DNA of 64,000 nucleotides from Candidatus Moraniibacteriota bacterium (GTDB lineage Bacteria; Patescibacteriota; Minisyncoccia; Moranbacterales; UBA1568). Location: contig JAYRRF010000024.1 in the NCBI GenBank assembly GCA_041910335.1, forward strand, positions 18,529-82,528, given 5' to 3'. The position numbers were made by a program, and so were the translations under genes. The notes beneath the pieces were generated by a model. The model searched no databases. It saw only the letters and a list, made by a program, of their open reading frames with translations, and was not told the DNA's origin. Below, piece by piece: positions 25,701 to 47,416 of the stretch; the stretch's first letter is position 1; each line of letters opens with the position of its first letter.

Positions 25701-26168
25701 ATTTTCTTTGGAAATGATAGAGAGGCTTTTGGAATAGGAATTATTCAAAATACCTTAGCATTGCAAATGCTTCGTTCTAGTTTGGAAGATAAGCCGTTGG
25801 ATACAATTTTGTTAGACAAAGAAAAGCAAATTCAAACCATGTTTCGCAGGGGACCCCAAATTGCCAGAGATACGAATGTAGATAGTTCACTGACTCCTAC
25901 CAAGGAAAGAGTATTGAACGAATCAAGGGTATACGGATGGAGTGCCGAAGAAATAGACAAATTACGTTCCACTCTTTCTACACGCAATGTAAATCTTGGA
26001 CGAAAAGTTAGTCGTATTGTTCGACTTATCAATGCAGCTATCAAAGAAAATATTTCAACAGAAAGTTATTATAGAGATCTCAAGAAGCTTTTAGTGGAAC
26101 CTTCTGAATCAGCGATGGTGACGGATGTACAGTTTTTGCTTGGGTATACTGATCATTACTCACGATAA
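22743..26168 (+). CDS. Phospholipase-D-family (HKD) nuclease fused to an SNF2-family SF2 helicase (1141 aa); restriction/defense-type
   Basis: N-terminal single HKD motif: FLHAKCYIFGN...GIIGSSNFTRNG. Helicase motifs: I LADSVGLGKT, II VIDESHNLRS, III LLCTATP. A long insert follows, then C-terminal motifs V LFATDVLSEGQNLQ and VI HWNPVRMVQRNGRINRLG. Confidence 0.85.
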   Translation: MSYSKIIDNKRVSLKDVLLDVSKNFSELSIATGYWDIEGMRLVLNSIKEYKKVRILIGREPLLKRDNKTGIDQPEPDYPDQDFFEDLQRISPSSELKQVVIALKKLIDNGQLEVKVYRRSFLHAKCYIFGNYESTEAVGIIGSSNFTRNGMTSNSELNSLESDHRVVAFRPQTEQQEVGHLYWFDNLWDDALTEDWTGKFIELVRTSPHGDLLNSPRDMYLRTLYELYRHEIEQEEEDIINPTSKKLFEFQEKNVKNLKRILDTYGVAMLADSVGLGKTISAMGVIKQYKNQRVVVIAPKTLGQQWEQELAQEDLHNVRVVSLQNRQEIEEQINIDQYSSPALFVIDESHNLRSNNGTRYELISDWISSSYNEESHVLLCTATPINNSLTDLTSQILLGARGDQDIFTLAVKTYGGQVVTRSFYEAIDNIRKRIQQDIAQGGENLEEIYLEARITLEPIIRNFVVRNTRQSIGSLISENGDVQNFPEVKINNTKYQPVQVPLTISERHQKITSHSIEQLADTMDRLKHPMRQIDDLDVEGVAPENANSIYRIYQLILGLSFVPYRWYMYDFRLYDKTRDELRNMRLSGSDLMKINMQLSLYGIMRTLFLKRLESSAYALEVSLKRYLNRLQVFEQILRDENIIINLSEVADILDEYSPDDGDQITYSTEELLEKARKNPEEVDKNFNKTVLLEDIHIEKDLISEIIGLVATIKSTDPKIKDLKRKLKDSYREDPAKKILIFTFFADTIDYIEKELGTDPDMKEVFNQSAFVSGRDRRHALHCANRFAPEAKGAQSLVAEEGEITYLFATDVLSEGQNLQDCGEIINYDLHWNPVRMVQRNGRINRLGTKHETVWVDNFVPGDDLELFLGIMDRLNKKIELIKHAIGNDSSIFGETIDARSYTDLYSDDANRASIAYDQLETSIDAFSDDIFLKDLKHFLKKATDEEIRQMKRIPYGSWGIVPQGLTDPNDVILFSKLAYTNGITKNIFFGNDREAFGIGIIQNTLALQMLRSSLEDKPLDTILLDKEKQIQTMFRRGPQIARDTNVDSSLTPTKERVLNESRVYGWSAEEIDKLRSTLSTRNVNLGRKVSRIVRLINAAIKENISTESYYRDLKKLLVEPSESAMVTDVQFLLGYTDHYSR

Positions 26169-29100
26169 TGAATTACGATCAAATCAATCAACAATTAGAG
26201 ACAATACGCAAAACTAAAAACATTGAAGATGTGCAGTCTTTGGTGTGTCTTTTGCTTGAGCCGCTAGGTATTGTAGGATGCAAGCCTGAAGAATTACTTA
26301 ATCATAGCTCGGTACAACGTGAATTTTCTCGTTTCATGCCCGCACAAGGGTTCAGAGATCGAGCTGCTGCTTATACCATCAAACATACGTCGGATTTGCC
26401 GGTAGATATCAAACTCTACTGGATCAAAAAAACCACCAAAGCCAATCTTTCATGGCTCATGGCTCTTACTCCTAATTACGAAGACAACCCAGAGATTAAT
26501 ACCTCTATGAATCTGGGCATCGATATTATAGTTTCAGAGAATTGTGAAAGTATCTATCTGGTACTTTCAAGTATGCTCAAAGTTCGAGTATTGGAGTTAA
26601 ATGGGGTTCTCTCTCATACTCAGAGAGAAATACTTGAGAACTGGCAGAAAATAGGTTCTACTACAGATTCTCAATCAGAGAACTTCAAGCAAGAATTGCA
26701 TAAACTTCTTTGGAAGAGTTTTGACTTTGAGCCGATCAACCGTAAATTCTATCAAGAACTTGTCACACAGTTTGATCATCTAGTCCTTCATCTCAAGCCT
26801 ATAGTTGGGGAGGCATCGGCCAAGATGTTTGCAGTGAGGTTTATCGGAAGAACACTCTTTTTGTGGTTTCTCCGCAAAAAGGATTTTATCAATCCAGAGA
26901 AAGAATACTTCAATGTTTCAGGAAGTGATGATCAGAGTCTTTACTACCATTCCAAGTTAGAATCATTGTTTTTTGAGGTGCTCAACACTGAGGTAAAATC
27001 ACGTAGTTTTGATGATTTTGTGACTCCATTTCTTAATGGAGGGCTATTTGAGCCAATAGAAACAGATTTTTATAGGGATGAGAAGCTGACTTTTCCAGAA
27101 GGATTCTTCACTCAGTTCTTTGATGTCCTTAATCGCTATAATTTCACCGTAGATGAGGGTACTTCTGAGTATGAGCAAGTGGCGGTGGATCCAGAAATGT
27201 TGGGACGAGTATTTGAGAATCTCCTCGCTTCTATCAATGATGAGACAGGCGGGCAGGCCCGTAAGTCTAAAGGAGCTTTTTATACACCTCGTGAGATTGT
27301 GGACTATATGTGCAAGCAGTCTCTCATAGAGTATTTAAAAACAAAGCTTCCAGATACCGCTAATCGAGATCGTCGTATAGAAGAACTTGTCACTATGGAC
27401 GAGGCCACATTTCGTGATCAGGATCACAACAAGCGTCGTGACTGGAAGAAAGATCTTGGTCAAGAGACTGTACTAAAAGCCCTTGATGAATTACGTATCC
27501 TTGATCCGGCAGTTGGGTCGGGCGCTTTTCCTATGGGTATGCTGAATCTCTTGGTCAAGGTCTATACACGTATTGATACTAGCAGAGAGAAAGATCTTGC
27601 TACGCTCAAAAGAGAAATTCTTTCTCGATCGCTCTATGGTGTAGATATAGATCAGATGGCTATACAGATTAGTCGTCTCCGAGCCTGGCTTTCTATTTTG
27701 GTAGATATGGAGAGTCTCAAAAAAATTGATCCGCTGCCAAACCTAGACTTCAAGTTTGTTTGTGCTAATACGTTGATAGCCCTTGATGAAGGGCCAAATA
27801 GTTTATTTGATACTGATATAGAACTCAAAAAACATTTGATAGATCTTAGGGATAAGTACTACGCTGCTACACGTAAGGTAGACAAAGGGAAAATTAGAAA
27901 AGAATATCTATTTTCTATTCAAAAGGGAGGCGAATTATTCGCTTCCAAAAGAGAATTGCAGTTGAGGGATTATAATCCTTTTAATCCTCTTAATTCTACC
28001 AATTTCTATGATCCTGAACTCATGCACGGAGTGGAGAGTTTTGATGTCGTGATAGGTAATCCGCCATACGTGCAGCTTCAAAAGTTTGCCCGTACTCAAA
28101 TTCAGAAAGATTTAGAGAATGAAAAATACCAAACCTTTGCAAAAACAGGAGATTTATACGCTCTCTTTTACGAAAAAGGATTGAATCTTACCAGTCTAGA
28201 TTCAGGTTTGCTCTGTTACATTACGAGCAACAAGTGGATGAGGGCGGGGTATGGCGAAAGTCTTCGTAGATATTTTGTGCAACACAATCCGCTTCTTTTG
28301 CTAGATTTAGGAAGTGGTGTGTTTGAGAGTGCTACGGTAGATAGTAATATTTTATTGATTCAGAATACCTTAAATAAAGGAGAAACAAAGGCAGTCACGA
28401 TTAAGGATAATAAGAAAAGTTTTTCTACTCAGTTGCAAGAACATGGATCAGTGGTAAATTTTGATTCAAGTGGTCCGTGGTTTATTGGTACTCAAGTAGA
28501 GATTAATCTAAAAAATAAAATTGAGACAAATGGAAAACCTCTTAAAGATTGGGATGTTTCAATTAACTATGGTATAAAGACCGGCCTTAATGAAGCTTTT
28601 ATTATTAATCAGGAAAAACGAGATGAGTTGATTGCTCAGGATCTAAAAAGTGAAGAAATTATTAAGCCTATTTTGCGAGGAAGGGATATAAAGAGATATT
28701 CCTACAATTTTTCAGGTCTATATTTGTTAATGACAGGTTTTGATTTTGACATTCCAGTGGAATACCCTGTCGTTTTTAATCATCTGAAGCAGTTTGAAGA
28801 AAAGGCAAAGAAAAGAGATGATCAGGGTAAAAATTGGTGGAATTTGAGAGCATGCGTTTATTATGATGAGTTTGAAAAAGAAAAAATAGTATGGGGAAAT
28901 ATAGCATACAATTCCACTTTTTCAGTGCTAGGTAGTAGCTATTACTTAAATGCTCCTGGAAACCTTATAACTTCTAATTCCACTAGTTTAAAGTTTTTGT
29001 TAGGTTGTTTAAATTCGAAAATATTCAATTGGGAATTCAAAAAAGAAGGTATATTTTTAGGGAATGCTTATGAATGGAAGAAGCAGTATGTAGAACAGAT

Positions 29101-29287
29101 TCACTTGCCATTGAAACAAGATTCACAAAGTATTAAAAAAATTGAGAGTATTGTTGAAAAAATCATATACTTAAAAAAAATAAATCTTGATGCAGACACC
29201 AAAGATCTAGAAGCTCAAATTGATCAGCTTGTTTATCACCTTTATGACCTAACAGAAGATGAAATTAAGATAATTGAAGAATCTTAA
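26168..29287 (+). CDS. Gamma-class N6-adenine DNA methyltransferase with Eco57I/TaqI-like C-terminal target-recognition domain (Type IIG/ISP/PglX-like architecture, no recognisable nuclease domain; 1039 aa)
   Basis: FLNGGLFEP and KGAFYTPREIVDYM N-terminal motifs, motif I ILDPAVGSGAFPMG, motif IV VIGNPPYVQ. TaqI_C-like GIKTGLNEAFII and ILRGRDIKRY. C-terminal LYDLTEDEIKIIE. The start overlaps the upstream stop (TAATG), consistent with translational coupling. Confidence 0.85.
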   Translation: MNYDQINQQLETIRKTKNIEDVQSLVCLLLEPLGIVGCKPEELLNHSSVQREFSRFMPAQGFRDRAAAYTIKHTSDLPVDIKLYWIKKTTKANLSWLMALTPNYEDNPEINTSMNLGIDIIVSENCESIYLVLSSMLKVRVLELNGVLSHTQREILENWQKIGSTTDSQSENFKQELHKLLWKSFDFEPINRKFYQELVTQFDHLVLHLKPIVGEASAKMFAVRFIGRTLFLWFLRKKDFINPEKEYFNVSGSDDQSLYYHSKLESLFFEVLNTEVKSRSFDDFVTPFLNGGLFEPIETDFYRDEKLTFPEGFFTQFFDVLNRYNFTVDEGTSEYEQVAVDPEMLGRVFENLLASINDETGGQARKSKGAFYTPREIVDYMCKQSLIEYLKTKLPDTANRDRRIEELVTMDEATFRDQDHNKRRDWKKDLGQETVLKALDELRILDPAVGSGAFPMGMLNLLVKVYTRIDTSREKDLATLKREILSRSLYGVDIDQMAIQISRLRAWLSILVDMESLKKIDPLPNLDFKFVCANTLIALDEGPNSLFDTDIELKKHLIDLRDKYYAATRKVDKGKIRKEYLFSIQKGGELFASKRELQLRDYNPFNPLNSTNFYDPELMHGVESFDVVIGNPPYVQLQKFARTQIQKDLENEKYQTFAKTGDLYALFYEKGLNLTSLDSGLLCYITSNKWMRAGYGESLRRYFVQHNPLLLLDLGSGVFESATVDSNILLIQNTLNKGETKAVTIKDNKKSFSTQLQEHGSVVNFDSSGPWFIGTQVEINLKNKIETNGKPLKDWDVSINYGIKTGLNEAFIINQEKRDELIAQDLKSEEIIKPILRGRDIKRYSYNFSGLYLLMTGFDFDIPVEYPVVFNHLKQFEEKAKKRDDQGKNWWNLRACVYYDEFEKEKIVWGNIAYNSTFSVLGSSYYLNAPGNLITSNSTSLKFLLGCLNSKIFNWEFKKEGIFLGNAYEWKKQYVEQIHLPLKQDSQSIKKIESIVEKIIYLKKINLDADTKDLEAQIDQLVYHLYDLTEDEIKIIEES

Positions 29288-32548: not shown

Positions 32549-32709
32549 AGCGTTTTATGAATGGATGGATTGGAAGTAAATAAGAATGAGCGTGACAATG
32601 ACAAAACTCGCTACAACAGGTAGGAGAAAGAGAAGTGATTTCATAATAGTTTGGTATGGCCTCATTATACCATCTTTCGGAAGTGCTTGGAGAGGAGTAT
32701 ACTAGAAGC

Positions 32710-33006
32710 ATGACTATCGAAATCCATCCACTCCTTCTCATTCTCTTCGCACTCATCAACGGAGTGGCTTTTGTCGTTATGTTGTGGGATAAGGCTCAGT
32801 CGATGCAGCAAGGCGCAGAACGCATCTCTGAGGGGATGTTGTTTTTCTTGGCGACCATTTTCGGAAGTGTCGGTATCTACGCTGGGATGATGCTCATCCG
32901 TCACAAGAGTCGTAAGTGGTACTTTCTGATCGGTATTCCGCTTCTCATCGCCGAAAACCTCGCCACTCTCTACGTCATCAATCTCTCTCTCAATAACGCA
33001 CTCTAA
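32710..33006 (+). CDS. DUF1294-family membrane protein
   Basis: WDKAQSMQQGAERISEGMLFFLATIFGSVGIYAGMMLIRHKSRKWYF matches DUF1294. The ATG at 32710 has a GAGAGGAG RBS; the ORF-track start at 32656 is an alternative. Confidence 0.55.
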   Translation: MTIEIHPLLLILFALINGVAFVVMLWDKAQSMQQGAERISEGMLFFLATIFGSVGIYAGMMLIRHKSRKWYFLIGIPLLIAENLATLYVINLSLNNAL

Positions 33007-34726: not shown

Positions 34727-35026
34727 TTACTTACCAGTTGGACCAAGATCTGCCCAAGCATCATCGACACGGTCGATCTCTCTGAGACGATCAATTTCTT
34801 TGTCTGGATCAAGAATAGCAGCACGTACTTCATCATCAGTACGTCCGTGGAAACGATGTTTGCCTACTCTCTCGAAGTAGAGTTTCTCTAGGGCCTCACG
34901 ATCAAGGCTAGCCAAATCCAGCTCCGCCGTCTGTTCATCCACAGCATCCTCTTTTTTGGGAAGATTTAAATCGAGTTGCTCCTCAGGGGTTTCCATGAAG
35001 GAGAAATGAAATTGTTGTTCACCCAT
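34727..35026 (-). CDS. Small acidic hypothetical protein
   Basis: Start at the internal ATG (MGEQQFHFSFMETPEEQ...). The ORF-track start at 35128 would overlap the divergent exonuclease gene and add an implausible N-terminus. Confidence 0.4.
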   Translation of the reverse strand: MGEQQFHFSFMETPEEQLDLNLPKKEDAVDEQTAELDLASLDREALEKLYFERVGKHRFHGRTDDEVRAAILDPDKEIDRLREIDRVDDAWADLGPTGK

Positions 35027-35060
35027 AGCAGTAGTTATTAGGCGTATTGATACGGTCATT

Positions 35061-35082
35061 ATAGCATGGTTTGGCATGCTAT
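35061..35082. promoter_or_regulatory. 8-bp perfect inverted repeat (ATAGCATG-gtttgg-CATGCTAT) in a divergent promoter region
   Basis: Seen directly in the sequence between divergent genes 34727..35026 (-) and 35109..35846 (+). Confidence 0.4.
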
Positions 35083-35108
35083 ACTTAAGGGTATTATAGA
35101 ACAAAAAT

Positions 35109-35846
35109 ATGACCAAAAATAACCTCATTTTCCTGGATACTGAGACGACCGGACTGACCCCAGAAGACCGTCTCTGTCAGCTTGCCTATACTTTTCAAGG
35201 AAAGGAATTCGAAGCTCTATTCAAGCCACCACTGCCAATTTCTATCGAAGCAATGTCGGTCACTCATATCACCAATCGCATGGTGGCTGATAAAGAGGTG
35301 TTTGCTGATTCCCGGGCGAAGTCAGAGCTCATCCATCTGTTAGGAGAGGGGAATATACTAGTCGCTCACAATGCACGATTTGATATCGATATGCTCAAGC
35401 GAGAAGGGGTAGAAGTAGGTAAGTATATCGACACCTTCAAGGTCGCCTATGCCTTGGATGAGCAAGGTGAGATCCCACGTTACGCATTGCAGTACCTTCG
35501 TTACTATTTCGACCTCGATGTATCGGAAGCGACAGCGCACAGTGCACTTGGCGATGTACGCGTACTAGTAGCAGTGTTTGACTTTCTGTTTGCCAAGATG
35601 ATGGTGGTGCACCAGGATGAAGACCGGGTCATCGAAGAGATGAGCGCCCTTTCTGATAAGCCTCTTCTCTTCCGCACTTTCACCTTCGGGAAGTATAGTG
35701 GGCAGTCTATCAAAGAAGTCGCTGCTAACGATCAGGGCTATATCGCCTGGCTCCTCAATCAAAAAATCATGAATCGTGAGAATGGTGGTGAAGATGATGA
35801 GAACTGGATTTATACACTCGACTATTATCTCGAAAAAACATCATGA
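35109..35846 (+). CDS. DEDDh 3'-5' exonuclease (DnaQ/ExoX-like) with C-terminal DUF3820-like domain
   Basis: Exo I FLDTETTGL, Exo II VAHNARFDIDML, Exo III HSALGDV. C-terminal FGKYSGQSIKEV...YIAWLL. Confidence 0.8.
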   Translation: MTKNNLIFLDTETTGLTPEDRLCQLAYTFQGKEFEALFKPPLPISIEAMSVTHITNRMVADKEVFADSRAKSELIHLLGEGNILVAHNARFDIDMLKREGVEVGKYIDTFKVAYALDEQGEIPRYALQYLRYYFDLDVSEATAHSALGDVRVLVAVFDFLFAKMMVVHQDEDRVIEEMSALSDKPLLFRTFTFGKYSGQSIKEVAANDQGYIAWLLNQKIMNRENGGEDDENWIYTLDYYLEKTS

Positions 35847-37324
35847 TTCTCACCAAAACTGATTTCAAAGAACATCTCCTGTGTCACAAAAGTTTGTGGC
35901 TCAAAAAGAACAAGCCGGAGCTCTACACGCCAGGAGAGTTTTCTTTGTTTCTGCAAAAAATCTTGAAGGATGGTGATGAAGTAGAGTCATATGTACAGAG
36001 GCTTTTTCCTGAAGGGAAGATGATCCATGGTTCCAATCCAGTTTTGGTTGAGCGAACCAAGGAGCTTCTTCCAGATCAGGGGACGCTCTTTCAGGCAACG
36101 TTTGAGACGGTGGAAGAACTTTTTGCGAAGATAGATATTCTTCAGTGGAACCAAGAGACGGAGAAGTGGGATATCTATGAGGTGAAGGCAAGCACTGAGA
36201 TCAAGAGTGACCTCAAGCACAACCATCTCAAAGACATCACCTTCCAGACACTCGTCGTACGAGAGGTGCTCGGTCGAGAGATGGTAGGTGAAAGCACGCT
36301 CATCTATATCAATAAAGACTATCGCCGTGGTGAAGAACTGAATCTCGAAGAACTTTTCATTTTCGAAAACGTGACCGCGGCAGTCAATGAACAAGCTGGG
36401 GTGGTCTCTAGTGAGATGAACGAAGCACTCCAGCACCTTGGGCAAGAAGAGATCAATTATCAGACCTGCCCGTGTCTGTATCGGACCAATGGTCAGCGTT
36501 GTGATGCGTTCTTTTTCTTCAATCCTGATGTTCCTGCTTATTCAGTGCATCACATAGTGAGCGGAAAAAAACTTGAGGCACTACTCGATATGGGAGTGCT
36601 CAGTATCGAGTCGATTCCAGAAGATTTCAAGTTGACCGCTATTCAGCAGAGTAAGGTAGACTTGGTCAAAAATGGCCAGCCAAGAATTGATCTTGCTGGT
36701 ATCAAGGATGAGTTAGACGGACTGGTCTTCCCACTCTACTTTCTTGACTATGAGACCTATGGATCACCAATTCCGCTCTTACCTGGGTATAAGGCTAATC
36801 AGGCAGTGGTCTTTCAGGTGTCAGTCCACAAGCTTTCAGAAGACGGAGCACTCGAACATTTCGAATATCTTGCTGATGATTTTGTCTCTGCGACCGAAGG
36901 GCTGGTCGCCATGCTTCGTCAGACCATTGGTGAGACAGGGAGTATCATTGTGTGGTATGAGAGTTTTGAGAAGGGGCGTAATAAGGAGCTATCCGAGCTT
37001 CATCCAGAAGCGAGCGGGTTTTTTCTCCAGATGAATGAGCGCATCTTTGATCTGATGAAAGTGTTCACTCAATACTATGCTGATCCGAAGTTTGGTGGGA
37101 GTTTTTCTATCAAGAATGTGTTGCCAGTGTTGTTGCCAGCATTGTCGTATAAGAGTCTCGAAATCCAAAACGGTACCATGGCTCTTTCTGAGTGGGAGAA
37201 GATGGTGCGAGGCAATATGACACCAGAGTACCGGGCACAGGTACGAGAAAATCTTCTTCGTTACTGTGAGCTTGATACTCGTGCGATGGTAGAACTCTAT
37301 CAAGCATTGCAGAAAATGATCTAG
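35843..37324 (+). CDS. Cas4/RecB-like PD-(D/E)xK nuclease (4-Cys cluster) fused to a DUF2779/RNase-H-like C-terminal domain
   Basis: Overlaps the upstream stop (ATGA). Cys14 plus CPCLYRTNGQRC gives four Cys in total. AKIDILQW...DIYEVKAST carries the D and ExK nuclease motifs. C-terminal FLDYET...IVWYESFEK is RNase-H/DEDD-like. Confidence 0.6.
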   Translation: MILTKTDFKEHLLCHKSLWLKKNKPELYTPGEFSLFLQKILKDGDEVESYVQRLFPEGKMIHGSNPVLVERTKELLPDQGTLFQATFETVEELFAKIDILQWNQETEKWDIYEVKASTEIKSDLKHNHLKDITFQTLVVREVLGREMVGESTLIYINKDYRRGEELNLEELFIFENVTAAVNEQAGVVSSEMNEALQHLGQEEINYQTCPCLYRTNGQRCDAFFFFNPDVPAYSVHHIVSGKKLEALLDMGVLSIESIPEDFKLTAIQQSKVDLVKNGQPRIDLAGIKDELDGLVFPLYFLDYETYGSPIPLLPGYKANQAVVFQVSVHKLSEDGALEHFEYLADDFVSATEGLVAMLRQTIGETGSIIVWYESFEKGRNKELSELHPEASGFFLQMNERIFDLMKVFTQYYADPKFGGSFSIKNVLPVLLPALSYKSLEIQNGTMALSEWEKMVRGNMTPEYRAQVRENLLRYCELDTRAMVELYQALQKMI

Positions 37325-37327
37325 TAT

Positions 37328-37570
37328 ATGCGAGTAGCAGTCACAGTCAAAACCAATGCGAGAGAAGAAAAAGTCACAGAATCACGTGGGGGTTCGGCCT
37401 CCAAGTATGGGCGAGAGTTAGTGGTGAGTGTGAAGGCAGTGCCGGTAGAAGGTAAAGCGAATGAGGCTCTGCGCAAAATACTCGCCAAGCACTTCAAGAC
37501 CAGTCCATCATGCATCACGTTGGTACGTGGCACAAGAAGTAAAGAAAAAGTTTTTGATATCCTTTTATGA
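37328..37570 (+). CDS. DUF167 (YggU/UPF0235) family protein
   Basis: VKAVPVEGKANEALRKILAKHFKTSPSCITLVRGTRSKEKVFDI matches DUF167. Confidence 0.65.
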   Translation: MRVAVTVKTNAREEKVTESRGGSASKYGRELVVSVKAVPVEGKANEALRKILAKHFKTSPSCITLVRGTRSKEKVFDILL

Positions 37571-37860
37571 CCAAAGAGTATAAAATCAAGGCCAAAGTCT
37601 TCGTCTATAGCGTTGAGCCAGCGAGCTGGTATTTCGTCAGTATTGATAAAAAAATAACAGAAGAAATAAAAGCAAAAGCGAAGAAGAAAGTGGGGTTTAG
37701 TTTTGTACCAGTCGAGGTGACAGTAGGGAGGACGACTTGGCGGACAACCCTCTTCCCGACCAAGGAAGGTCCATATATACTGGCTCTCAAAAAGATAGTG
37801 CGACAAAAAGAAGATATCCGAGAAGGGGACATAGTGACTGTAAGATTTCATCTGGTTTAG
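37567..37860 (+). CDS. DUF1905-family protein
   Basis: WYFVSI...GFSFVPVEVTVGRTTWRTTLFPTKEGPYILALKKIVRQKEDIREGDIVTV pattern. Confidence 0.55.
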   Translation: MTKEYKIKAKVFVYSVEPASWYFVSIDKKITEEIKAKAKKKVGFSFVPVEVTVGRTTWRTTLFPTKEGPYILALKKIVRQKEDIREGDIVTVRFHLV

Positions 37861-37881
37861 CTAGCTGTTATACTGAAAAAT

Positions 37882-38682
37882 ATGCAAAAAATCGAAATCC
37901 AAAACCGTAAAGGTCAGAAAATAGTCGGACTCCTTAATTTACCAGAAGGTGTGACCAGAGGAACGGCAGTGATTCAGCATGGGTATGGTGGACTCAAAAG
38001 TCAGGCTCATATTCTTAAAATGGAACAAGCATTTCATGATAATGGTTTTGTGACGTTTAATTTTGATACAACGAATTCTTTCGGAGAAAGTGATGGTACA
38101 TACTGGGAGGCGAGACTCGGACTGCATGCCGAAGATCTTGAAGACGTCGTCAAATGGGTAGAGCAACAAGAGTGGTTCGTGAAACCTCTCGCGCTCACCG
38201 GGCATAGCATGGGTGGCTATGCAGTAGCACGGTATGCAGAACACTATCCAGAAGAGGTAGATATACTCGTACCAGTTGCACCAGTTGTCTCCGGTGAGCT
38301 TTCATGGGAAACTCATCAAGAACTTGAACCTGAGGCATTCAGGATTTTTCAAGAAAAAGGGTATAAGGAATCAGTCAGTCAGACTACAGGAATTGTGAAG
38401 AAATCTCCTTGGGCAGAAATGGAAGAGAGACTCGATCATGATCTTCTGCCGTTGGCTAAAAATCTCACTATGCCCACACTTCTAGTAGTAGGCTCACAAG
38501 ATGAAAGTTGCCGTCCTCAGGACATCAAGCTTCTTTACGATGCATTACCTATAAGCACGAAGAAAAATTATGTAGAGATAGAAGGTGCGCCGCATACTTA
38601 TCGTACAGAAGAACATCTACAGTCTCTTTACGATATAATAAACGATTGGCTGAAAGAAGTGGTTTTCAATAATGCCCAATAA
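37882..38682 (+). CDS. Alpha/beta-hydrolase fold protein
   Basis: Nucleophile elbow LTGHSMGGYAV. Acid/His region LLVVGSQDE ... APHTY. Confidence 0.75.
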   Translation: MQKIEIQNRKGQKIVGLLNLPEGVTRGTAVIQHGYGGLKSQAHILKMEQAFHDNGFVTFNFDTTNSFGESDGTYWEARLGLHAEDLEDVVKWVEQQEWFVKPLALTGHSMGGYAVARYAEHYPEEVDILVPVAPVVSGELSWETHQELEPEAFRIFQEKGYKESVSQTTGIVKKSPWAEMEERLDHDLLPLAKNLTMPTLLVVGSQDESCRPQDIKLLYDALPISTKKNYVEIEGAPHTYRTEEHLQSLYDIINDWLKEVVFNNAQ

Positions 38683-38685
38683 ATC

Positions 38686-40011
38686 ATGACCCAAAAGACA
38701 GCACTTGCATTGTTACGAGCTGGCCACAGTATCTTTCTCACGGGGGAAGCTGGCGCTGGTAAGACACATACTATCAATGAGTATGTGCGTTTTTTGCGTG
38801 AGCACAAAATAGCCTACGCAGTCACTGCTTCGACTGGTATCGCCGCGACTCATATCAGTGGGATGACTATCCATTCATGGAGTGGCATAGGGACAGCGCG
38901 AGAGCTTAGTGAAGCAGAAATCAAAAATATTGCTAAGACGGCACATGTTGCTAAACGAATCAGAAAGGCTAAGGTGCTCATCATTGATGAAATCTCTATG
39001 TTGGACGGCCGCACGCTCTCTTTGGTGGAGACGGTTTGTCGAGTGGTTCGGAAGACGAGCCTGCCTTTCGGAGGAATGCAAGTCATTCTTGTCGGGGATT
39101 TTTTTCAGTTGCCACCAGTGACGGGTCGAGGTGAGGCGCCGCAGTATGCTTTTGAGAGTGAGGCGTGGTCACGCTTGATGCCAGTCATTTGTTATCTCGA
39201 GGAGCAGTATCGCCAGGAGGATGAAGTATACCTACGTCTCCTCAAAGCCATTCGCCACAATACACTTGAAGAAACAGATTATGAGACTTTTCGTGCTCAG
39301 ATGGTTTCAGAGGATGAGGCGCCACTTGGAGTGACGCGACTGTACGCTCACAATATTGATGTGGACAGAGTCAACCAAGAAGAGCTCAGACAACTTCCAG
39401 GAAAAGTGATGGCCTATCAAATGAGAGGAGAAGGAAAAGAACAGCTTGTAGAAGCATTGAAGCGCAATTGTCTTTCCCCAGAACGTCTTGAGCTCAAAGT
39501 AGGTGCACTGGTCATGTTCACGAAGAACAATCAGCTCGATGGCTATGTCAACGGTACGCAAGGAGTGGTGCTTTCATTTCACCCAGACACCAAGCTCCCG
39601 ATTGTGAAAACCAAGAGTGGGAATATCATTGAGGTGGGACCAGCCGAATGGTCACTTTTTGAAGGTGATGAGGAGTTAGCAAGTGTGACCCAGTTGCCTC
39701 TCCGTCTAGCGTGGGCACTCACCATCCATAAGAGTCAAGGGACGAGCCTTGATGCGGCGGTCATTGACCTCTCCAAAGCTTTTGAATATGGGCAAGGTTA
39801 TGTAGCATTGTCACGTGTCCGCACTCTCCGCGGACTACATCTTATCGGCATGAATCAGAAGGCCACAGCTATCCATCCATATATCCGCACAATGGACGAA
39901 GAATTTCGTCAGGCTTCTCATGAAGCCAAACAAAAACACGCTTCTTTGTCAGATGAAGCGCGTCAAGAACTTGAGCACACTTTCCTCCTTTTTGTTGGCG
40001 GAAAGAAGTAG
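38686..40011 (+). CDS. PIF1/RecD-family SF1 DNA helicase
   Basis: Walker A FLTGEAGAGKTH, Walker B LIIDEISML, VGDFFQLPPV motif, C-terminal ALTIHKSQG. Confidence 0.8.
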   Translation: MTQKTALALLRAGHSIFLTGEAGAGKTHTINEYVRFLREHKIAYAVTASTGIAATHISGMTIHSWSGIGTARELSEAEIKNIAKTAHVAKRIRKAKVLIIDEISMLDGRTLSLVETVCRVVRKTSLPFGGMQVILVGDFFQLPPVTGRGEAPQYAFESEAWSRLMPVICYLEEQYRQEDEVYLRLLKAIRHNTLEETDYETFRAQMVSEDEAPLGVTRLYAHNIDVDRVNQEELRQLPGKVMAYQMRGEGKEQLVEALKRNCLSPERLELKVGALVMFTKNNQLDGYVNGTQGVVLSFHPDTKLPIVKTKSGNIIEVGPAEWSLFEGDEELASVTQLPLRLAWALTIHKSQGTSLDAAVIDLSKAFEYGQGYVALSRVRTLRGLHLIGMNQKATAIHPYIRTMDEEFRQASHEAKQKHASLSDEARQELEHTFLLFVGGKK

Positions 40012-40177
40012 TCTGGGTATAACAAAAGCCCTCAATGCGGGCAAGTGGGTCTGGGTCCCTGAAAATAAGCATCGGAAAAAATAATTTTTTCCCTAGAAAT
40101 CTAGGTGGGTCCCAATTAGGAGTAGAAACTCCGTCACGTACCTTTCTGAAGGCTTTCAACTATAGTATAGCACAGGT

Positions 40178-42529: not shown

Positions 42530-43807
42530 ATGACCGACAAAGAAAAGCTCTGGGAAGAGCTCATCTCTATCACAGATTTTCAGAACAAAAATACGCTGCC
42601 AGAGTATCCGGGAGTATACTTTTTTCTTGATGACAAAAAAGAAGTGCTCTATGTCGGTAAAGCTACCTCACTTCGTGATCGAGTGAAAAGCTATTTCGTC
42701 CAAGATATGCTGGAGACGCGAGGGCCAAAGATAGAGCTGATGATGCCGAAGATTGGCTTCATTGGGTACCGCAAGACGGATTCGGTTCTCGAGGCACTTC
42801 TCTTGGAGTCAGAATTGATCAAAAGTCTGCAGCCGCCTCACAACACTGATGCCAAAGATGACAAAAGTTATAACCAAGTCGTCATTACCAAGGAACTCTT
42901 TCCGCGCGTACTAGTTGTCCGTAGTCGGGATATCGCTCAAGGGAAATTCAGTGATCCTATCAAGTATTCTTTCGGACCATTCCCTGATGGAGGGAGTCTG
43001 CGAGAAGCGATGAAAATCATTCGTCGTCTTTTCCCATTTCGTGATAAATGTGTGCCCTATGAGTCTCTGACAGATACACAGAAGAAAAAAGCACGAGCTT
43101 GTTTTTCTGCTCAGATTGGGCTCTGTCCGGGGGTGTGTACAGGAGCTGTCACAGCTGCAGAATATCAAGAAGGTCTCAAGCACCTCAAGCTTTTCTTTCA
43201 AGGGAAAAAAGGTAGGCTGGTAAAGACTCTCGAAAAAAAGATGATGACATTTGCTCATGAACTTCGTTTCGAAGAAGCAGGAGAGGTAAAGAAACTCTTA
43301 TTTGGACTGCAGCACATACAAGATATTGCTCTCGTCAGACAAGACATTGGTGAGGGTGAGCGGCACCGCATCGAAGCCTATGATGTGGCTCATCTTCAGG
43401 GGAGTGCTTCGGTCGGAGTGATGACGGTTGTTCAGAAGAGTCGAGTTCAACCGAGTGAATATCGACAATTCAAGCTGCGAGCTAAGCACAATGGCAATGA
43501 TCTTTCGGCTTTGGAGGAAATTTTGCGACGACGCTTCACTCATCCTGAGTGGCCCTTTCCCGAACTGATTGTCATTGATGGAGGCGAGACGCATCGCAGA
43601 CAGGCAGAGAAAATTTTACAAGAAATAGACGTGAGTATCCCTGTGCTATCGGTCGTCAAAGATGAGCGTCATCGTCCGAGAGAGGTGCTGGGTCTTATTG
43701 CACTAGCAGAACGTTTCAAGAAAGAAGCTTTGCTTGCCAACAATGAAGCTCATCGTTTTGCTATCACCTTTCACCGCAAACGTAAGCGTCAGGATTTCCT
43801 CTCGTAA
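42530..43807 (+). CDS. uvrC: Excinuclease ABC subunit C, short form (GIY-YIG + UvrBC-interaction + RNase-H-like endonuclease domains; lacks C-terminal HhH)
   Basis: GIY-YIG: YPGVYFFLDDKKEVLYVGKATSLRDRVKSY. UVR domain: LRFEEAGEVKKLLFGLQHI. Length is 425 aa against about 600 for canonical UvrC. Confidence 0.75.
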   Translation: MTDKEKLWEELISITDFQNKNTLPEYPGVYFFLDDKKEVLYVGKATSLRDRVKSYFVQDMLETRGPKIELMMPKIGFIGYRKTDSVLEALLLESELIKSLQPPHNTDAKDDKSYNQVVITKELFPRVLVVRSRDIAQGKFSDPIKYSFGPFPDGGSLREAMKIIRRLFPFRDKCVPYESLTDTQKKKARACFSAQIGLCPGVCTGAVTAAEYQEGLKHLKLFFQGKKGRLVKTLEKKMMTFAHELRFEEAGEVKKLLFGLQHIQDIALVRQDIGEGERHRIEAYDVAHLQGSASVGVMTVVQKSRVQPSEYRQFKLRAKHNGNDLSALEEILRRRFTHPEWPFPELIVIDGGETHRRQAEKILQEIDVSIPVLSVVKDERHRPREVLGLIALAERFKKEALLANNEAHRFAITFHRKRKRQDFLS

Positions 43808-43911
43808 CGGTAGACAAGGGAGTATTGACAAAGGTGCGCTAGAGGAGTAGACCTATAGAGCAACTTCAAAATGAGGGTATTTCGATGTCAGTTTTGCCAT
43901 ACGAACTTACC

Positions 43912-44424
43912 ATGATTGCTGCCTACATGGGTGCGCGGCGCATCATTGGTTACCAGGGAGAAATGCCTTGGAGTATTGAAACGGAGACGCAGTTTTTTCG
44001 CGAAACGACGCGAGGTTCTATCGTCATTATGGGACGTGTGACGTGGGAGTCTATCCTACGGCGGAATGGTCACCGGCTTCTTGGTCGCACCAATCTTGTT
44101 CTCAGTCGAAATGATCAGGACGGCGGCGGCTATGTTCCAGTTTTTTCGGTCGAAGATGCTCTTCGAGTGGTCGAACAACTTCGGCATGAAAATCAGAAGG
44201 TTTTCGTCATTGGTGGCGAACAGGTCTATAAGGCTTTTCTGCCATACGCCTCTCGACTGCTTATTTCAAGAATCGTGCATCGACGAGGAACTTTGCCTCA
44301 ACATGCTGATGCATTCTTTCCTTGCTTCAACAAGAAGGAGTTCCCGATTCACCGAAGAATTCGTTCCGGACAGGATGGGAGATACAGAATCGTTTTTGAA
44401 GAGCGAAAGCGGGTCAGTCGCTAA
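43912..44424 (+). CDS. folA: Dihydrofolate reductase
   Basis: MIAAYMGARRIIGYQGEMPW...VIMGRVTWESI...VFVIGGEQVYKAFLPYASRLLISRI aligns with the E. coli FolA pattern. Confidence 0.8.
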   Translation: MIAAYMGARRIIGYQGEMPWSIETETQFFRETTRGSIVIMGRVTWESILRRNGHRLLGRTNLVLSRNDQDGGGYVPVFSVEDALRVVEQLRHENQKVFVIGGEQVYKAFLPYASRLLISRIVHRRGTLPQHADAFFPCFNKKEFPIHRRIRSGQDGRYRIVFEERKRVSR

Positions 44425-44451
44425 GTCACCAAAAGTGGAGATATAAGCGAG

Positions 44452-44494
44452 GAGGGGTCTATCGTGCAGTGTCACGGTGGACCCCTCTCTCTTT
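44452..44494 (+). terminator. Hairpin terminator
   Basis: GAGGGGTC-(20 nt)-GACCCCTC followed by TCTCTTT. Confidence 0.5.
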
Positions 44495-44620
44495 ACAGCA
44501 TGTGAAAAATCATGTATCCTGAGAGACATCTTATTTAAGTGAAAAGTAAAAATGCAAAGCTAAAAATGACTTGCCTTTATACTCTTTCCATTTTGATGTT
44601 TTCATTTTGAATTTCAGAAT

Positions 44621-47416
44621 ATGGCAGATAAAAAAACAGTCATTGAAGTGCGAGGCGCACGAGTGAATAACCTGAAGAATATCGATGTTGATATTCCGCG
44701 CGACGCATTGGTGGTCGTCACCGGTCTTTCTGGTTCGGGCAAATCATCACTGGCTTTTGATACTCTTTTTGCGGAAGCGAATCGACGCTATGTCGAGTCG
44801 CTTTCTTCATATGCACGTAATTTTCTTGATGGTTTTGAGAAACCGGATGTAGACACTATTCACAATCTTTCTCCAGCTATCTCTATTGATCAGAAGAGTG
44901 TTTCTCGTAGTCCGCGTTCTACTGTAGGCACGATGACGGAAGTCTATGATTACCTTCGTGTACTCTACGCCAAACTCGGTGAGCCACATTGTCCAAATTG
45001 TAGTGCGAAATTGAGTCGTCGAAGTGTTCGAGAGATTCTTGAGGAGATTCTGTTGTTACCGAATGACACCGCTCTAGTGTTTACTACGGAGAGTTTTGCT
45101 TTGCGTGGCAAGAATGAAAAAGATGCTCTGCAGATGATTCAGACCTGGGGGTATCCTCGAGTGATGAAGGACGGTGAAGTTCTTGGAATTGCTGAAGCAG
45201 CGATGACTGCCAAGGGAGATCAAGAACACCGCTATGAGCTCGTGATTGATCGTATGACACTCAACACGGCTCGTCCTGATAAGGAGCGTATCATCGACAA
45301 CCTTCAGACAGGTTTTCAGTTAGGTCATGGGACGCAAGCGGTAATCATTGGAGAAGACGGTGAGAAGCGTCACTACAATGAAGAATATCGTTGTGACAGT
45401 TGTGATATCTATCTCCCAGAGTTTTCACCGAGCCATTTTTCTTTCAATAATCCAGAAGGGGCTTGTCAGAAGTGTTCGGGTCTTGGCGTGACCCTTGCCT
45501 TTGATCCAGAACTGATTATTCCTAATAAGAATCTTTCTTTTCTTGAAGGAGCTGTACGGCCATGGAGCAAGATGAATAGTGGTCGTGAGAACGGACATGG
45601 GCCTCTCGCTCAGCTTTTGGATGCCTTGAAGCGTCTTCGTATTGGAGCAAGCACTCCAGTCAAAAAACTCTCCAAGAAACAGCTTGATATTATTTTCTTC
45701 GGTGAGGAGAAAGAGGGTGGCTTTGAGGGAATTATTTCTCTTTTGGAGCGTAAGTACAAAGAGACGAAATCAGAACATCTGCGAGGCGATATCGAAGCTT
45801 ACATGCATACGCAGGTATGTGATAGTTGTCAGGGTAAGCGACTCAAGAAGGAGTCTCTCTCAGTGTTGCTTCAGGGGCTGTCAATCGATGATATTGCTTG
45901 TCAAAGTATCGATAAGTTATTGATCACATTACCTACACTGGAAAAGAAGCTTGTCACCAACAAGGAAAACAAGGCATTCGTAGAGCCCCTTTTTCGTGAG
46001 ATGTTCACTCGTTTACGTGCAGTAGAGAAGGTCGGCCTAGGTTACTTGGAGATACGTCGTGGAGCTCACACGCTTTCTGGTGGAGAGGCTCAGCGTATCC
46101 GTCTTTCTGTGCAAATGAAGTCAGGTCTCTCAGGTATCATCTATGTCCTGGACGAACCCTCAGTTGGGCTTCATAGTCGTGATACTGAGAAACTCTTAGG
46201 GGCTCTCGAGGATTTACGTGGTGCCAATAACTCTCTGGTAGTCGTAGAGCATGATGTAGCTATCATGAAACGAGCTGATTATATTATCGATATGGGGCCT
46301 GGAGCAGGGAGTGAGGGAGGCGAAGTCATTTTTGCTGGGACACCTTCTGCACTCCTCAAATCAAAGATGCTCACTGCGGAGTACCTCAATGGTAAACGCA
46401 GCGTCTCCGAGAAGAAGAAGCTTCGCAAGGGGACTGGTAAGAGTCTTTCTATTATCGGTGCGAAAGAACACAATCTTCAGAACGTTGATGTGAGCATTCC
46501 TCTCGGTATGTTGGTCTCAGTAGTAGGAGTGTCTGGATCGGGTAAGTCATCCCTTGTCCACAGTATTCTTTCAAAAGCTCTCTCGAAACACTTCTACCAT
46601 GCCAAGGCAGAGCCAGGCGCTCACAAGAAAATCACCGGCTTAGAGAACATCGATAAAGTCATCACTGTCAATCAAGATCCAATTGGACGAACACCTCGCA
46701 GTAACGCAGCGACCTACACAGGAGTCTTTGGTCTTATTCGCGATGTTTTTGCAGCGACGCCTGATGCAGAGAAAGAGAAATTCAGCGCTAGTCACTTCAG
46801 TTTCAATATGCGTGGTGGACGCTGTGAAGAGTGTCAGGGAGGGGGAATGAAGAAAATAGAGATGTATCTCTTACCCGATGTATATGTACCTTGTGAGTAT
46901 TGCCAGGGCACTCGCTACAACCAGAAAACGCTTTCCATTGAGTACCGAGGGGTAAACATTTCTCAAATTCTCCAAATGACCGTGACAGAAGCGAGAAGAT
47001 TTTTCCTTGATCAACCAATGATTGAGGAGAAGCTCCGCGTGCTTGAAGAGGTGGGCCTTGGCTATCTTGTCTTGGGTCAGAGCGCTACCAATCTCTCCGG
47101 AGGTGAAGCTCAGCGTATCAAGCTCGCTACTGAATTGGCGCGTAAGTCTACTGGAAAGACTCTTTATATTCTCGATGAGCCGACTATCGGACTGCACTTC
47201 GAAGATGTGAGAAGACTCCTTGAAGTATTAGATGTTCTTGTAGACAAGGGGAATAGCGTCTTGGTAGTAGAGCATAATATCGATGTCGTCAAAGCATCAG
47301 ACTGGGTGATAGAGCTTGGGCCAGACGGTGGACAGGCTGGAGGAGAGCTGGTGTTTTCTGGTACACCTACGAAACTGAAGGCTGTTAAGAAAAGCTTCAC
47401 CGCTAAATACCTCTAG
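44621..47416 (+). CDS. uvrA: Excinuclease ABC subunit A (canonical, 931 aa, with insertion domain)
   Basis: [34 protein letters not shown], two LSGGEAQRI signatures, and a full insertion domain of about 110 aa between CQKCSGLG and CDSCQGKRL. Confidence 0.95.

Follow-up and report, generated by a model that had tools for sequence, protein, structure and literature searches.

Does a run of nuclease and helicase genes in a Patescibacteria genome constitute a phage-defence module, as a preliminary description of this DNA had leaned toward, or does it belong to the upkeep of the cell's own DNA? The locus belongs to the chromosomal backbone of a small-genome bacterium of the Patescibacteria (Paceibacteria-type), where several DNA-maintenance genes lie together. 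Within the window, i.e. the whole 64,000-nucleotide stretch that was analysed, one strand encodes in succession an ExoX-like exonuclease, a DUF2779 protein, DUF167 and DUF1905 proteins, an alpha/beta hydrolase, and a Pif1 helicase, while UvrC and UvrA follow a few kb beyond Pif1. An ORF check recovered every open reading frame at the position first reported.

The leading gene (35109..35846, plus strand) encodes a 245-aa DEDDh 3'-5' exonuclease of the ExoX-like type, including an ExoX-like C-terminal domain, assigned from profile matches and motifs. In a Pfam search, the protein matches RNase_T (69.8 bits) and ExoX-like_C (44.4 bits), and alignment to the exonuclease structures of PolC and epsilon places Exo motifs I (DTETTG), II (HNARFD), and III (HSALGD), in line with the DnaQ/ExoX-like enzyme originally proposed. 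At the sequence level, solved structures are matched weakly (the PolC exonuclease at 2e-8, ExoX at 2e-4). The three Exo motifs, the H-x4-D form, and the PF20600 C-terminal domain are shared with E. coli ExoX and the DnaQ family, but the protein scores below both NCBIfam equivalog cut-offs: 108.6 bits against 245 for its best match, PRK06309 (DNA polymerase III epsilon), and 89.2 bits against the curated 202 for the ExoX model PRK07983. Its homologues (n = 1995) come chiefly from Patescibacteria.

The second gene (35843..37324, plus strand) encodes the 493-aa DUF2779 protein, which Pfam, alignments, and an AlphaFold model identify as a PD-(D/E)xK nuclease joined to a DEDDy 3'-5' exonuclease, both sites being strictly conserved. 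The match to PF11074/DUF2779 reaches 111.4 bits (cut-off 23.3) over residues 299-422. The N-terminal site is of the Cas4/Dna2/Exo5-like PD-(D/E)xK type, with D98 (KIDIL), E113 and K115 (YEVK), and Q135, while the C-terminal DEDDy site comprises D302 and E304 (FLDYET), D403, Y474, and D478. Four cysteines, C14, C209, C211, and C220, form a 1+3 pattern. KIDIL, YEVK, the cysteines, and FLDYET are invariant in 21/21 aligned DUF2779 sequences, and the residues of both sites, including Q135, D403, Y474, and D478, and the cysteines are kept in essentially all of 80 GTDB homologues (77-80 of 80; all four cysteines in 77/80). The AlphaFold model has a pLDDT of 90, dipping to 60-82 near residues 201-230; its N-terminal half matches Cas4/Dna2/Exo5 and its C-terminal half the MrfB/PolB exonuclease, with Cas4 (7MI4), SSO0001 (4IC1), and MrfB (8UN9) as top structural matches. 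The preliminary description had proposed a Cas4/RecB-type core, a 1+3 Cys pattern, and an RNase-H-like half, suggested structure prediction as a check, and named missing catalytic residues as the finding that would speak against it. The model yields just these Cas4-like and DEDD exonuclease halves, and the alignment finds both nuclease sites intact and conserved.

The Cas4 model of PADLOC matches the protein weakly (4.3e-5), and Pfam Cas_Cas4 (PF01930) gives no match at E<=0.01. The cysteine spacing is C-x194-C-x-C-x8-C, compared with the canonical CxxCx5C of Cas4 and AddB; the Fe-S cluster therefore stays putative, although the Cas4/Dna2/Exo5-type domain probably holds one of the 4Fe-4S type.

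The last gene of the cluster (38686..40011, plus strand) encodes a Pif1-family SF1B DNA helicase of 441 aa, the size of minimal bacterial Pif1 proteins. It contains PIF1 (PF05970, 124.9 bits) and Pif1 2B (34.3 bits) domains and matches human PIF1 (3e-76), yeast PIF1 (5.7e-72), and Bacteroides Pif1 (2.5e-44) over its full length, including the core and the 2B domain, while it falls under the cut-offs of both the RecD2 and the RecD NCBIfam models. Thus, the helicase that had been placed downstream as PIF1-family is a true Pif1 by its domains and closest structures. Its linkage to the nuclease genes is loose, and we know of no in vivo role for bacterial Pif1 proteins.

Between the nuclease pair and the helicase, domain matches confirm the three genes originally named there: a DUF167/YggU-family small protein (37328..37570, plus strand; also in the related loci L001, L003, L089, and L091), a DUF1905 small protein (37567..37860, plus strand), joined to it by an ATGA overlap at 37567-37570, and an alpha/beta hydrolase (37882..38682, plus strand; Hydrolase_4 match). 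The hydrolase is a variable passenger gene: L001, L002, and L091 lack it, and L089 has other genes in its place. A -10-like box, TGTTATACT (37866..37874, plus strand), identified by its match to the consensus, stops 7 nt short of the hydrolase ATG and may act as an internal promoter from which a leaderless mRNA would start. Beyond Pif1, GC content rises to 0.50-0.54 at 40-42 kb, compared with ~0.45 elsewhere. The high-GC islet said to border the helicase is thus real, and its ORFs are common to L002 and L089, so the islet did not arrive by recent insertion.

Upstream of the exonuclease gene, an inverted repeat at 35060-35083 (TATAGCATG-6 nt-CATGCTATA) had been taken for an operator-like palindrome with 8-bp perfect arms. 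The repeat is perfect, but its arms measure 9 bp, and it is formed by two divergent extended -10 boxes, identified by consensus and conservation. The left arm belongs to TGCTATAAT (35058..35066, minus strand), which serves the divergent gene, while TGCTATACT (35077..35085, plus strand) lies 24 nt 5' of the exonuclease ATG. The minus-strand box reads TGGTATACT in L001 and L002 and TGCTATAAT in L003, and CATGCTATACT is identical in the window and L001-L003. Both TGnTATAnT boxes are therefore kept in these relatives, whereas the left arm differs and dyad symmetry is lost. The window contains TGnTATAnT 8 times (3.3 expected), 7/8 at promoter-like positions. Moreover, perfect inverted repeats with short spacers and arms of >=9 bp number ~11 in the window (20 hits when overlapping registers are counted; 3.35 hits expected from shuffled sequence), so this one is one of several and unremarkable as a palindrome. 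An operator or transcription-factor site was rejected, since only the boxes are conserved and TGnTATAnT is the window's general -10 element. The palindrome would thus have no role separate from the two promoters, a caution that divergent-promoter palindromes can be merely paired -10 boxes. The divergent gene itself (34727..35026, minus strand) encodes a small acidic protein of 99 aa from an ATG at 35026, the start codon being set by an ATG conserved among relatives. A Pfam search assigns it to no family; it is clade-conserved, with 39-52% identity to its counterparts in L001-L003, and a 99-aa gene is called at the matching position in L089.

How widely is the DUF2779 protein distributed, and in what company? 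The family comprises 9694 clusters at 50% identity, nearly all of 470-520 aa. It is present as one conserved copy across Patescibacteria, where at least 565 species genomes match and identity declines smoothly, and it extends to free-living Roseibium, cyanobacteria, and Campylobacterota. IMG/VR (2.9 million contigs) gave 7 matches only, the INPHARED phages searched gave no full-length match, and the top 150 family representatives include no fusion to a helicase or to ExoX. The family is large and mostly standalone, and its members are in essence cellular and not viral. The preliminary description had left its function open, which stands for the biological role, but the two-domain Cas4-like plus DEDD(y) layout is already in print (NAR 2014, PMC3985635; mSphere 2026, PMC13621843). 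The JCVI-syn3.0 homologue MMSYN1_0389 is quasi-essential, and the authors of that study conclude that it has a part to play beyond immunity (PMC13621843). This protein, the Ureaplasma UU173 family, and RNase-H-like family F.17 belong to the same Pfam family as the 493-aa protein. MMSYN1_0389 shares the domain layout, the catalytic D/E/K and D/E/D/Y/D residues, and the reported structural matches (Cas4, 7MID there and 7MI4 here; 4IC1; 8UN9). In contrast, the mycoplasma protein is ~650 aa long and retains two of the four cysteines, compared with ~490 aa and all four cysteines in Patescibacteria, and the match of the NCBIfam UU173 model to our protein is confined to the C-terminal half (58 bits, cut-off 225).

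The commonest context of DUF2779 is rpoB-rpoC-dnaG-rpoD immediately upstream (10 loci). Within two genes on either side, DnaG, SF1 helicases, PDDEXK_1, and RNase_H_2 exonucleases (7 loci for the last) recur, each with fewer than two members in a control set of genes >=5 kb away. Pif1 lies <=3.1 kb from DUF2779 in the clade of the window and again in L059/L076, whose Pif1 gene comes directly after one for a PDDEXK_1/Cas4-like nuclease, and AAA_11/AAA_12 SF1B helicases abut DUF2779 in L027, L066, L080, and an Aliarcobacter plasmid. This census lends modest support to the earlier remark that nuclease and helicase genes of this kind are repeatedly found side by side, but they do not make up a compact, conserved module.

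On balance, we favour the reading that the cluster is a housekeeping, lineage-specific DNA-maintenance neighbourhood for end or flap processing and not a dedicated anti-phage defence. Its housekeeping character is indicated by the smooth fall-off of identity, the large number of clusters of nearly uniform length, the non-viral spread, the rpoB-rpoC-dnaG-rpoD context, and the quasi-essentiality in syn3.0. In addition, transposon mutants in the DUF2779 gene and in RecD were both recovered in an M. bovis screen (PMC7373297), and Mollicutes are without RecBC and RecJ and retain RecD2 (PMC1193525). The ExoX-like and DUF2779 genes stand in tandem downstream of a single extended -10 promoter and would be co-transcribed. 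From its folds, DUF2779 is predicted to trim single-stranded DNA ends or flaps with both polarities, the Cas4-like domain threading 5' ends and the DEDDy domain taking 3' ends; its preference for DNA over RNA and for ends or flaps, like its polarity, is predicted in the same way. The ExoX-like enzyme would contribute extra 3'-end degradation, and an SF1B motor such as Pif1 could unwind in trans, making up a split, loosely linked analogue of Dna2/AddAB. Such a set might process recombination, repair, or replication intermediates in a genome with few enzymes of this kind.

A bolder version, which we put forward tentatively and rate as possible though unlikely, holds that minimal-genome bacteria have in DUF2779 their missing nuclease for end resection or flaps. 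It would be a dual-polarity enzyme, with an Fe-S Cas4/Dna2-like domain for 5' ends and a DEDDy domain for 3' ends, that cooperates in trans with an SF1B helicase and replaces RecBCD, AddAB, and RecJ. Patescibacteria would use Pif1 as the partner and Mollicutes RecD2, with Upf1-like AAA_11/12 helicases taking this place in other groups; the ExoX-like exonuclease would assist, and the nuclease-helicase pairing would have been recruited to defence islands and plasmids in other phyla.

A link to replication is improbable. It would make the DEDDh protein a DnaQ-like proofreader, with DUF2779 and Pif1 acting on lagging-strand flaps or primers as Dna2-Pif1 does. The epsilon model outranks ExoX, DUF2779 directly follows dnaG-rpoD in 10 loci and is quasi-essential in syn3.0, and the helicase is closest to eukaryotic PIF1; however, both NCBIfam scores lie far under their cut-offs, the ExoX-like C-terminal domain suggests an ExoX-type enzyme, and the dnaG-rpoD adjacency occurs in a few clades only.

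We likewise give little credence to the three proteins forming an uncharacterised anti-phage system that degrades invading phage or plasmid DNA. The locus is no recognisable anti-phage module: no co-located gene set matches the system models of PADLOC-DB v2, and nothing in PADLOC matches DUF167, DUF1905, or the hydrolase. The domain-level matches, namely Cas-associated DEDDh, Cas4, and RecD-like, would fit a defence role, but they are generic, the Cas4 match being weak and that of Pif1 lying in RecD-like P-loop and helicase regions. Neither a CRISPR repeat array nor cas genes occur in the window, and the census finds no cas genes among DUF2779 neighbours. The order of backbone genes around the cluster is conserved in L001-L003, L089, and L091, and the real variable island, of restriction-modification type, lies 6.5 kb upstream, beyond MFS, DUF1294, and META genes (PLD-SNF2 and Eco57I methylase in the window; type I restriction-modification and Fic in L089). 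Near-absence from viral contigs, the single conserved copy in Patescibacteria, and quasi-essentiality in a phage-free minimal cell also speak against defence. Family-wide, the leaning toward defence fares better: restriction, Mrr, RhuM, and SAVED-type genes lie beside DUF2779 in up to 19/147 cases, compared with 5/147 in the control (Fisher P = 0.005). Across 80 genomes, the immediate neighbours of DUF2779 include RhuM/Fic (4), Mrr (3), DUF4011-AAA_11/12-MTES_1575 helicase-nucleases (3), DNA methylases (5), SAVED (2), and DndB-like and PIN-TPR proteins. Plasmid copies are located between QatABCD and a dGTPase, next to type I restriction-modification genes, or next to a PLD nuclease. Given the restriction-type enrichment and the plasmid islands, at least part of the DUF2779 family may have an immunity-related role.

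Are the genes, then, juxtaposed by accident in one clade, the enzymes acting independently? The full ExoX-DUF2779-...-Pif1 order is limited to one family-level clade, the ATGA overlap at 35843-35846, where the ExoX-like stop meets the DUF2779 start, is unique to the window (gaps of 5-34 nt in relatives), and in close relatives 0-3 unrelated genes (hydrolase, adenylosuccinate lyase, YecM) separate DUF1905 and Pif1. ExoX homologues at 61-65% identity are located elsewhere, adjoining DUF1294, in ~88% of lineages DUF2779 is without an ExoX-like gene nearby, and the absence of fusions among the top 150 family representatives points the same way. We nevertheless regard pure coincidence as a doubtful explanation. 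ExoX-DUF2779 adjacency appears in four scattered lineages besides the one clade, and an ExoX-like gene lies <=2.5 kb from DUF2779 in 5/~42 lineages in four different arrangements, where ~0.22 would be expected (Poisson P = 4e-6; 1.6e-3 when these are taken as 3 lineages). The linkage of the two is well above chance, with low penetrance, and in several phyla DUF2779 repeatedly has RNase_H_2 exonucleases, PDDEXK_1 nucleases, or SF1B helicases as neighbours.

Patescibacteria and Mollicutes depend on nucleotide scavenging. That the exonucleases serve salvage, breaking imported or damaged DNA down to mononucleotides in hosts without de novo synthesis, is nonetheless very unlikely: the prominence of DUF2779 in these two groups (UU173 family), an M. 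bovis DUF2779 mutant from a screen that also gave nanoRNase NrnA and GdpP mutants (PMC7373297), and a 5'-nucleotidase gene after one Arcobacter plasmid copy are outweighed by the free-living hosts, by a census without competence genes, nucleoside kinases, or transporters near DUF2779, and by a putative Fe-S, end-threading Cas4-type nuclease being typical of end processing and not of bulk degradation.

The window alone adds one DUF2779 member in a lineage-specific arrangement to a family of ~9,700 clusters. If the neighbour partnerships are real, the candidate partners, i.e. ExoX-like and RNase_H_2 exonucleases, PD-(D/E)xK nucleases, Pif1 and Upf1-like SF1B helicases, and dnaG, would explain the processing of DNA ends in Patescibacteria and Mollicutes in the absence of RecBCD, AddAB, and RecJ, and would provide a testable function for a remaining unknown quasi-essential gene of the minimal cell.

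Among known systems, the Fe-S cluster PD-(D/E)xK end-processing nucleases Cas4, AddB, Dna2, and Exo5 are close, and the DUF2779 protein has the RecB-type nuclease motifs D, ExK, and Q of Cas4. The DUF2779 locus, however, has no cas1, cas2, or CRISPR around it, and the nuclease of Dna2 and AddB is fused to a helicase, whereas that of DUF2779 is fused to a DEDDy exonuclease. MrfB of B. subtilis, a DEDDh enzyme of mitomycin-C repair, has ~15% identity to the protein, and employs H instead of Y as general base; no helicase partner resembling MrfA was seen for DUF2779. The cluster does not belong with AddAB, RecBCD, and AdnAB: it has no SF1A motor, no fused helicase-nuclease polypeptide, and no Chi-type regulation, and DUF2779 and Pif1 are encoded apart, with a distance of 1.4 kb and unrelated genes in between. 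What the cluster would have in common with these complexes and with Dna2-Pif1 is the principle of opposite-polarity nucleases and an SF1 motor acting together at DNA ends or flaps.

An ORF check of the window recovered the reading frames of the preliminary description in place. The cluster comprises an ExoX-like exonuclease of 245 aa (35109–35846; RNase_T, 69.8 bits; ExoX-like_C, 44.4 bits), a DUF2779 protein (PF11074) of 493 aa (35843–37324; DUF2779, 111.4 bits; RNase_H_2 slightly below threshold), DUF167 (37328–37570), DUF1905 (37567–37860), an alpha/beta hydrolase (37882–38682), and a Pif1 helicase (38686–40011; PIF1, 124.9 bits, and the Pif1 2B domain). All six genes lie on the same strand with intergenic gaps of at most 21 nt. 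The ATGA start/stop overlap between exonuclease and DUF2779 (35843–35846) is confirmed, and the DUF167/DUF1905 junction displays an ATGA overlap likewise. The host belongs to the Patescibacteria (CPR, Paceibacteria-type). The nearest homologues of the DUF2779 protein (76–95% identity) derive from metagenome bins, followed at ~62% identity by Yonathbacteria, Kaiserbacteria, and Nomurabacteria. Backbone genes flank the cluster in conserved order, with MFS, DUF1294, DUF1761-like, and META genes upstream and UvrC, DHFR, and UvrA downstream. This UvrC is short (425 aa; GIY-YIG and UvrC RNase-H domains; TIGR00194 match above cut-off) and precedes DHFR and a UvrA of 931 aa (42530–47416), while a second UvrA-like paralogue of 862 aa is encoded at 965–3553.

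Alignment of the 245-aa protein to PolC and epsilon exonuclease structures places all three Exo motifs (DTETTG, HNARFD, and HSALGD). Since its scores fall below the NCBIfam cut-offs of ExoX and of the epsilon subunit alike, we name it no further than ExoX-like DEDDh exonuclease. The 493-aa protein contains a RecB/Cas4-type site (D98, E113, K115, and Q135) and a DEDDy site (D302, E304, D403, Y474, and D478), both invariant in alignments of 21 and 80 sequences, while C14, C209, C211, and C220 are retained in 77 of the 80. Because these catalytic residues are invariant, the earlier reading of the protein as a Cas4/RecB-type nuclease joined to an RNase-H-like half is correct. This two-nuclease architecture has already been published and is thus not new. 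Within the RNase-H-like superfamily, Majorek et al, 2014 (PMC3985635) grouped DUF2779 in the 3′–5′ exonuclease clade and pointed out that a DUF83/PD-(D/E)xK domain is attached to it. Moreover, a 2026 mSphere paper (PMC13621843) describes the family of MMSYN1_0389, the DUF2779 member of JCVI-syn3.0, as fusions of a Cas4-like with a DEDD(y) nuclease, and the window protein shares its best structural templates with MMSYN1_0389. The family comprises 9694 clusters at 50% identity, nearly all of them standalone proteins of 470–520 aa. The 150 best family representatives include no fusion to either a helicase or a DEDDh exonuclease that would argue for a physical partnership; three long proteins (623–740 aa) carry unrelated extensions or are apparent merged gene calls, and the two of them compared with the window exonuclease display no similarity to it.

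To place the cluster in context, we took DUF2779 together with 10 kb on either side from GTDB species genomes (80 loci) and compared the neighbours. In the family-level clade of the window (loci L001–L003, L089, and L091), the ExoX-like gene adjoins DUF2779, and the order reads ExoX-DUF2779-DUF167-(metallophosphoesterase)-DUF1905-(0–3 variable genes)-Pif1. The ATGA overlap of the nuclease pair occurs in the window only, with gaps of 5–34 nt in the relatives. The hydrolase is a passenger gene: its position is empty in L001, L002, and L091 and is taken in L089 by adenylosuccinate lyase, YecM, and one gene of no assigned family. Within 2.5 kb of DUF2779, an ExoX-like gene is also found in four further lineages in differing arrangements, either directly downstream (L030 and L069), one gene downstream (L061), or upstream with RmuC, a DNA recombination gene, in between (L057). 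Chance predicts 0.22 such cases, given a ~1-Mb genome, 5.3 kb of flank examined at each locus, and ~42 lineages defined at 70% identity, versus 5 observed (P ~4e-6; P ~1.6e-3 when counted as three deep lineages). Seen from the ExoX side, homologues at 61–65% identity neighbour DUF1294 and not DUF2779. Thus, the ExoX-DUF2779 link is statistically real but of low penetrance, and immediate adjacency is mostly confined to the window clade.

In other Patescibacteria, ExoX-like genes adjoin DUF1294 (L092, 4697–5735; L093, 5001–6052), and a DUF1294 gene lies 2 kb upstream of the cluster in the window (32656–33006). Across more distant relatives, the ExoX-DUF1294 linkage looks more persistent than that of ExoX and DUF2779. 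Besides the window clade, only L059/L076 have Pif1 within 3.1 kb of DUF2779, there directly behind a PDDEXK_1/Cas4-like nuclease. A jackhmmer search with Pif1 against all flanking ORFs returned no additional divergent Pif1-like genes. Pif1 of L003 is broken into overlapping ORFs of 165 and 339 aa (12552–14038), which makes it a frameshifted pseudogene or else a product of faulty assembly.

Across the family, the commonest context is an upstream rpoB-rpoC-dnaG-rpoD block, directly or within a few genes, at 10 patescibacterial loci (L018, L020, L021, L022, L032, L034, L037, L069, L071, and L073), often with a DsbA-like thioredoxin and a 191-aa RNase_H_2/PolB-exo-like exonuclease on the downstream side of DUF2779. 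Further, an Upf1-like AAA_11/AAA_12 SF1B helicase abuts DUF2779 in L027, L066, L080, and on an Aliarcobacter plasmid. In a Pfam census, the 147 immediate neighbours include sigma-70, DsbA, RNase_T/ExoX, RhuM/Fic, methylases, Mrr, MTES_1575, and SAVED, and the 130 proteins at the second position include DnaG, SF1 helicases, PDDEXK_1, and RNase_H_2, compared with RpoB, tRNA synthetases, three methylases, and two recombinases among 147 control ORFs at least 5 kb away. DUF2779 thus tends to lie near other DNA nucleases and helicases. The proposed recurrence of nuclease/helicase sets thereby gains modest support.

The preliminary description further linked the cluster to phage defence. In the wider family, some connection to immunity is suggested: adjacent genes of restriction/defence type number at most 19/147 versus 5/147 in the control (Fisher P = 0.005, ignoring kinship). 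Census P values are rough, since the ORFs were crudely called (longest non-overlapping, genetic code 11), Pfam counts cover only families with at least two members, and related genomes were left uncollapsed. Moreover, plasmid-borne copies are embedded in defence islands. At the window locus itself, a defence module is not supported. PADLOC detected no system at the cluster, only generic domain matches; the window contains neither a CRISPR array nor cas genes; and the flanks are conserved-order backbone. Additionally, the family is large and almost entirely standalone, it is nearly absent from viral collections, and MMSYN1_0389 is quasi-essential in a minimal cell (JCVI-syn3.0) grown without phages, the authors of the mSphere paper concluding on a role “beyond bacterial immunity” (PMC13621843). 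A phage origin of DUF2779 is rejected, with 7 matches in IMG/VR and no full-length match in INPHARED.

The variable island of the window lies elsewhere, at 22.7–29.3 kb. Two proteins are encoded in this low-GC block (0.34–0.40; 22743–29287): one of 1141 aa that pairs a PLD nuclease with an SNF2 helicase, and an Eco57I/MmeI-type methyltransferase of 1039 aa whose specificity domain is TaqI_C. L089 carries different defence genes, namely a type I restriction-modification system and Fic (1–3617), at the corresponding site ahead of MFS, so that a hot spot for defence genes may lie ~6.5 kb upstream of the nuclease pair. The plasmid-borne copies, from Campylobacterota and one cyanobacterium, are tightly packed with defence or DNA-processing genes (L094 on Aliarcobacter pACRY43158, L095, L097, and L098). 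Their arrangements include QatABCD-like genes, DUF2779, a 927-aa AAA_11/AAA_12 helicase, a hypothetical gene, and dGTPase; a DEAD helicase, HATPase_c_3 protein, DUF2779, and PLD protein; and, on two Arcobacter plasmids, a PD-(D/E)xK nuclease immediately upstream of DUF2779 near type I restriction-modification genes. These loci may represent uncharacterised DUF2779-containing systems.

The operator-like palindrome upstream of the pair is present, with arms of 9 bp rather than the 8 reported before (TATAGCATG-N6-CATGCTATA, 35060–35083), and is instead two back-to-back promoters. The right arm belongs to TGCTATACT, which lies 24 nt upstream of the exonuclease ATG, and the left arm reads on the other strand as TGCTATAAT, upstream of a divergent 99-aa gene. 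The consensus TGNTATAMT occurs 8 times in the window versus 3.3 expected, 7 of these immediately preceding a gene or an Rfam RNA, and is therefore the extended −10 element of the host. In three relatives, the minus-strand box is kept as TGGTATACT or TGCTATAAT and the plus-strand box as TGCTATACT, while the 9-bp dyad is not; ~11 comparable inverted repeats exist across the window. The operator reading is thus rejected. Within the cluster, TGTTATACT (37866–37874) ends 7 nt before the hydrolase ATG, a distance suggesting that the hydrolase-Pif1 unit may have a promoter inside the cluster and be transcribed as a leaderless mRNA.

The 150-nt spacer behind Pif1, which is more strongly conserved than the genes beside it, harbours a candidate small structured RNA (40016–40158, minus strand) that converges on the Pif1 stop codon and has its own −10 box TGCTATACT (40164–40172, minus strand) and a terminator-like 3′ end. 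This candidate is ~88% identical to L002, L001, and L088 versus ~78% for the flanking proteins, and the predicted fold has an MFE of −46.8 kcal/mol (z = −4.1). Compensatory double changes occur at five base pairs among the window, L002, L089, and L091; with four sequences only, this apparent covariation is anecdotal. No Rfam family matched the candidate even at E ≤ 10, and a metagenome scan returned a single near-identical copy. The adjacent GC-rich islet (40–42.5 kb) is neither a recent insertion, its ORFs being common to L002 and L089, nor a known RNA gene, as Rfam gave a sub-threshold Xoo2 match only; its ORFs matched no Pfam or NCBIfam entry. Elsewhere, a DUF3800 protein gene (21909–22553, plus strand) is directly followed by the DUF3800-IX RNA RF02968 (22555–22623, minus strand; 65 bits versus a gathering score of 36.8), with the −10 box TGCTATAAT at 22637–22645 (minus strand).

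At the level of annotation, the initial interpretation was right, and the locus adds a member, in an arrangement specific to its lineage, to a family that is known but uncharacterised. The best lead comes from the family as a whole: exonucleases, PD-(D/E)xK nucleases, SF1B helicases, and dnaG recur beside DUF2779, and from this recurrence a testable hypothesis can be framed about a quasi-essential gene of unassigned function. RecBC and RecJ are missing from Mollicutes, another group with DUF2779, but the SF1B helicase RecD2 is kept there (PMC1193525). In a transposon screen of M. bovis, DUF2779 and RecD mutants were both recovered (PMC7373297). Most likely, DUF2779 would unite two activities, a 5′ nuclease of the Cas4/Dna2/Exo5/AddB type that threads ends and a 3′–5′ DEDDy exonuclease, and could thereby trim single-stranded DNA of both polarities at ends or flaps. 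The ExoX-like enzyme would contribute 3′-end degradation, and an SF1B helicase would provide unwinding. As a set, the three proteins would resemble a split Dna2 or AddAB.
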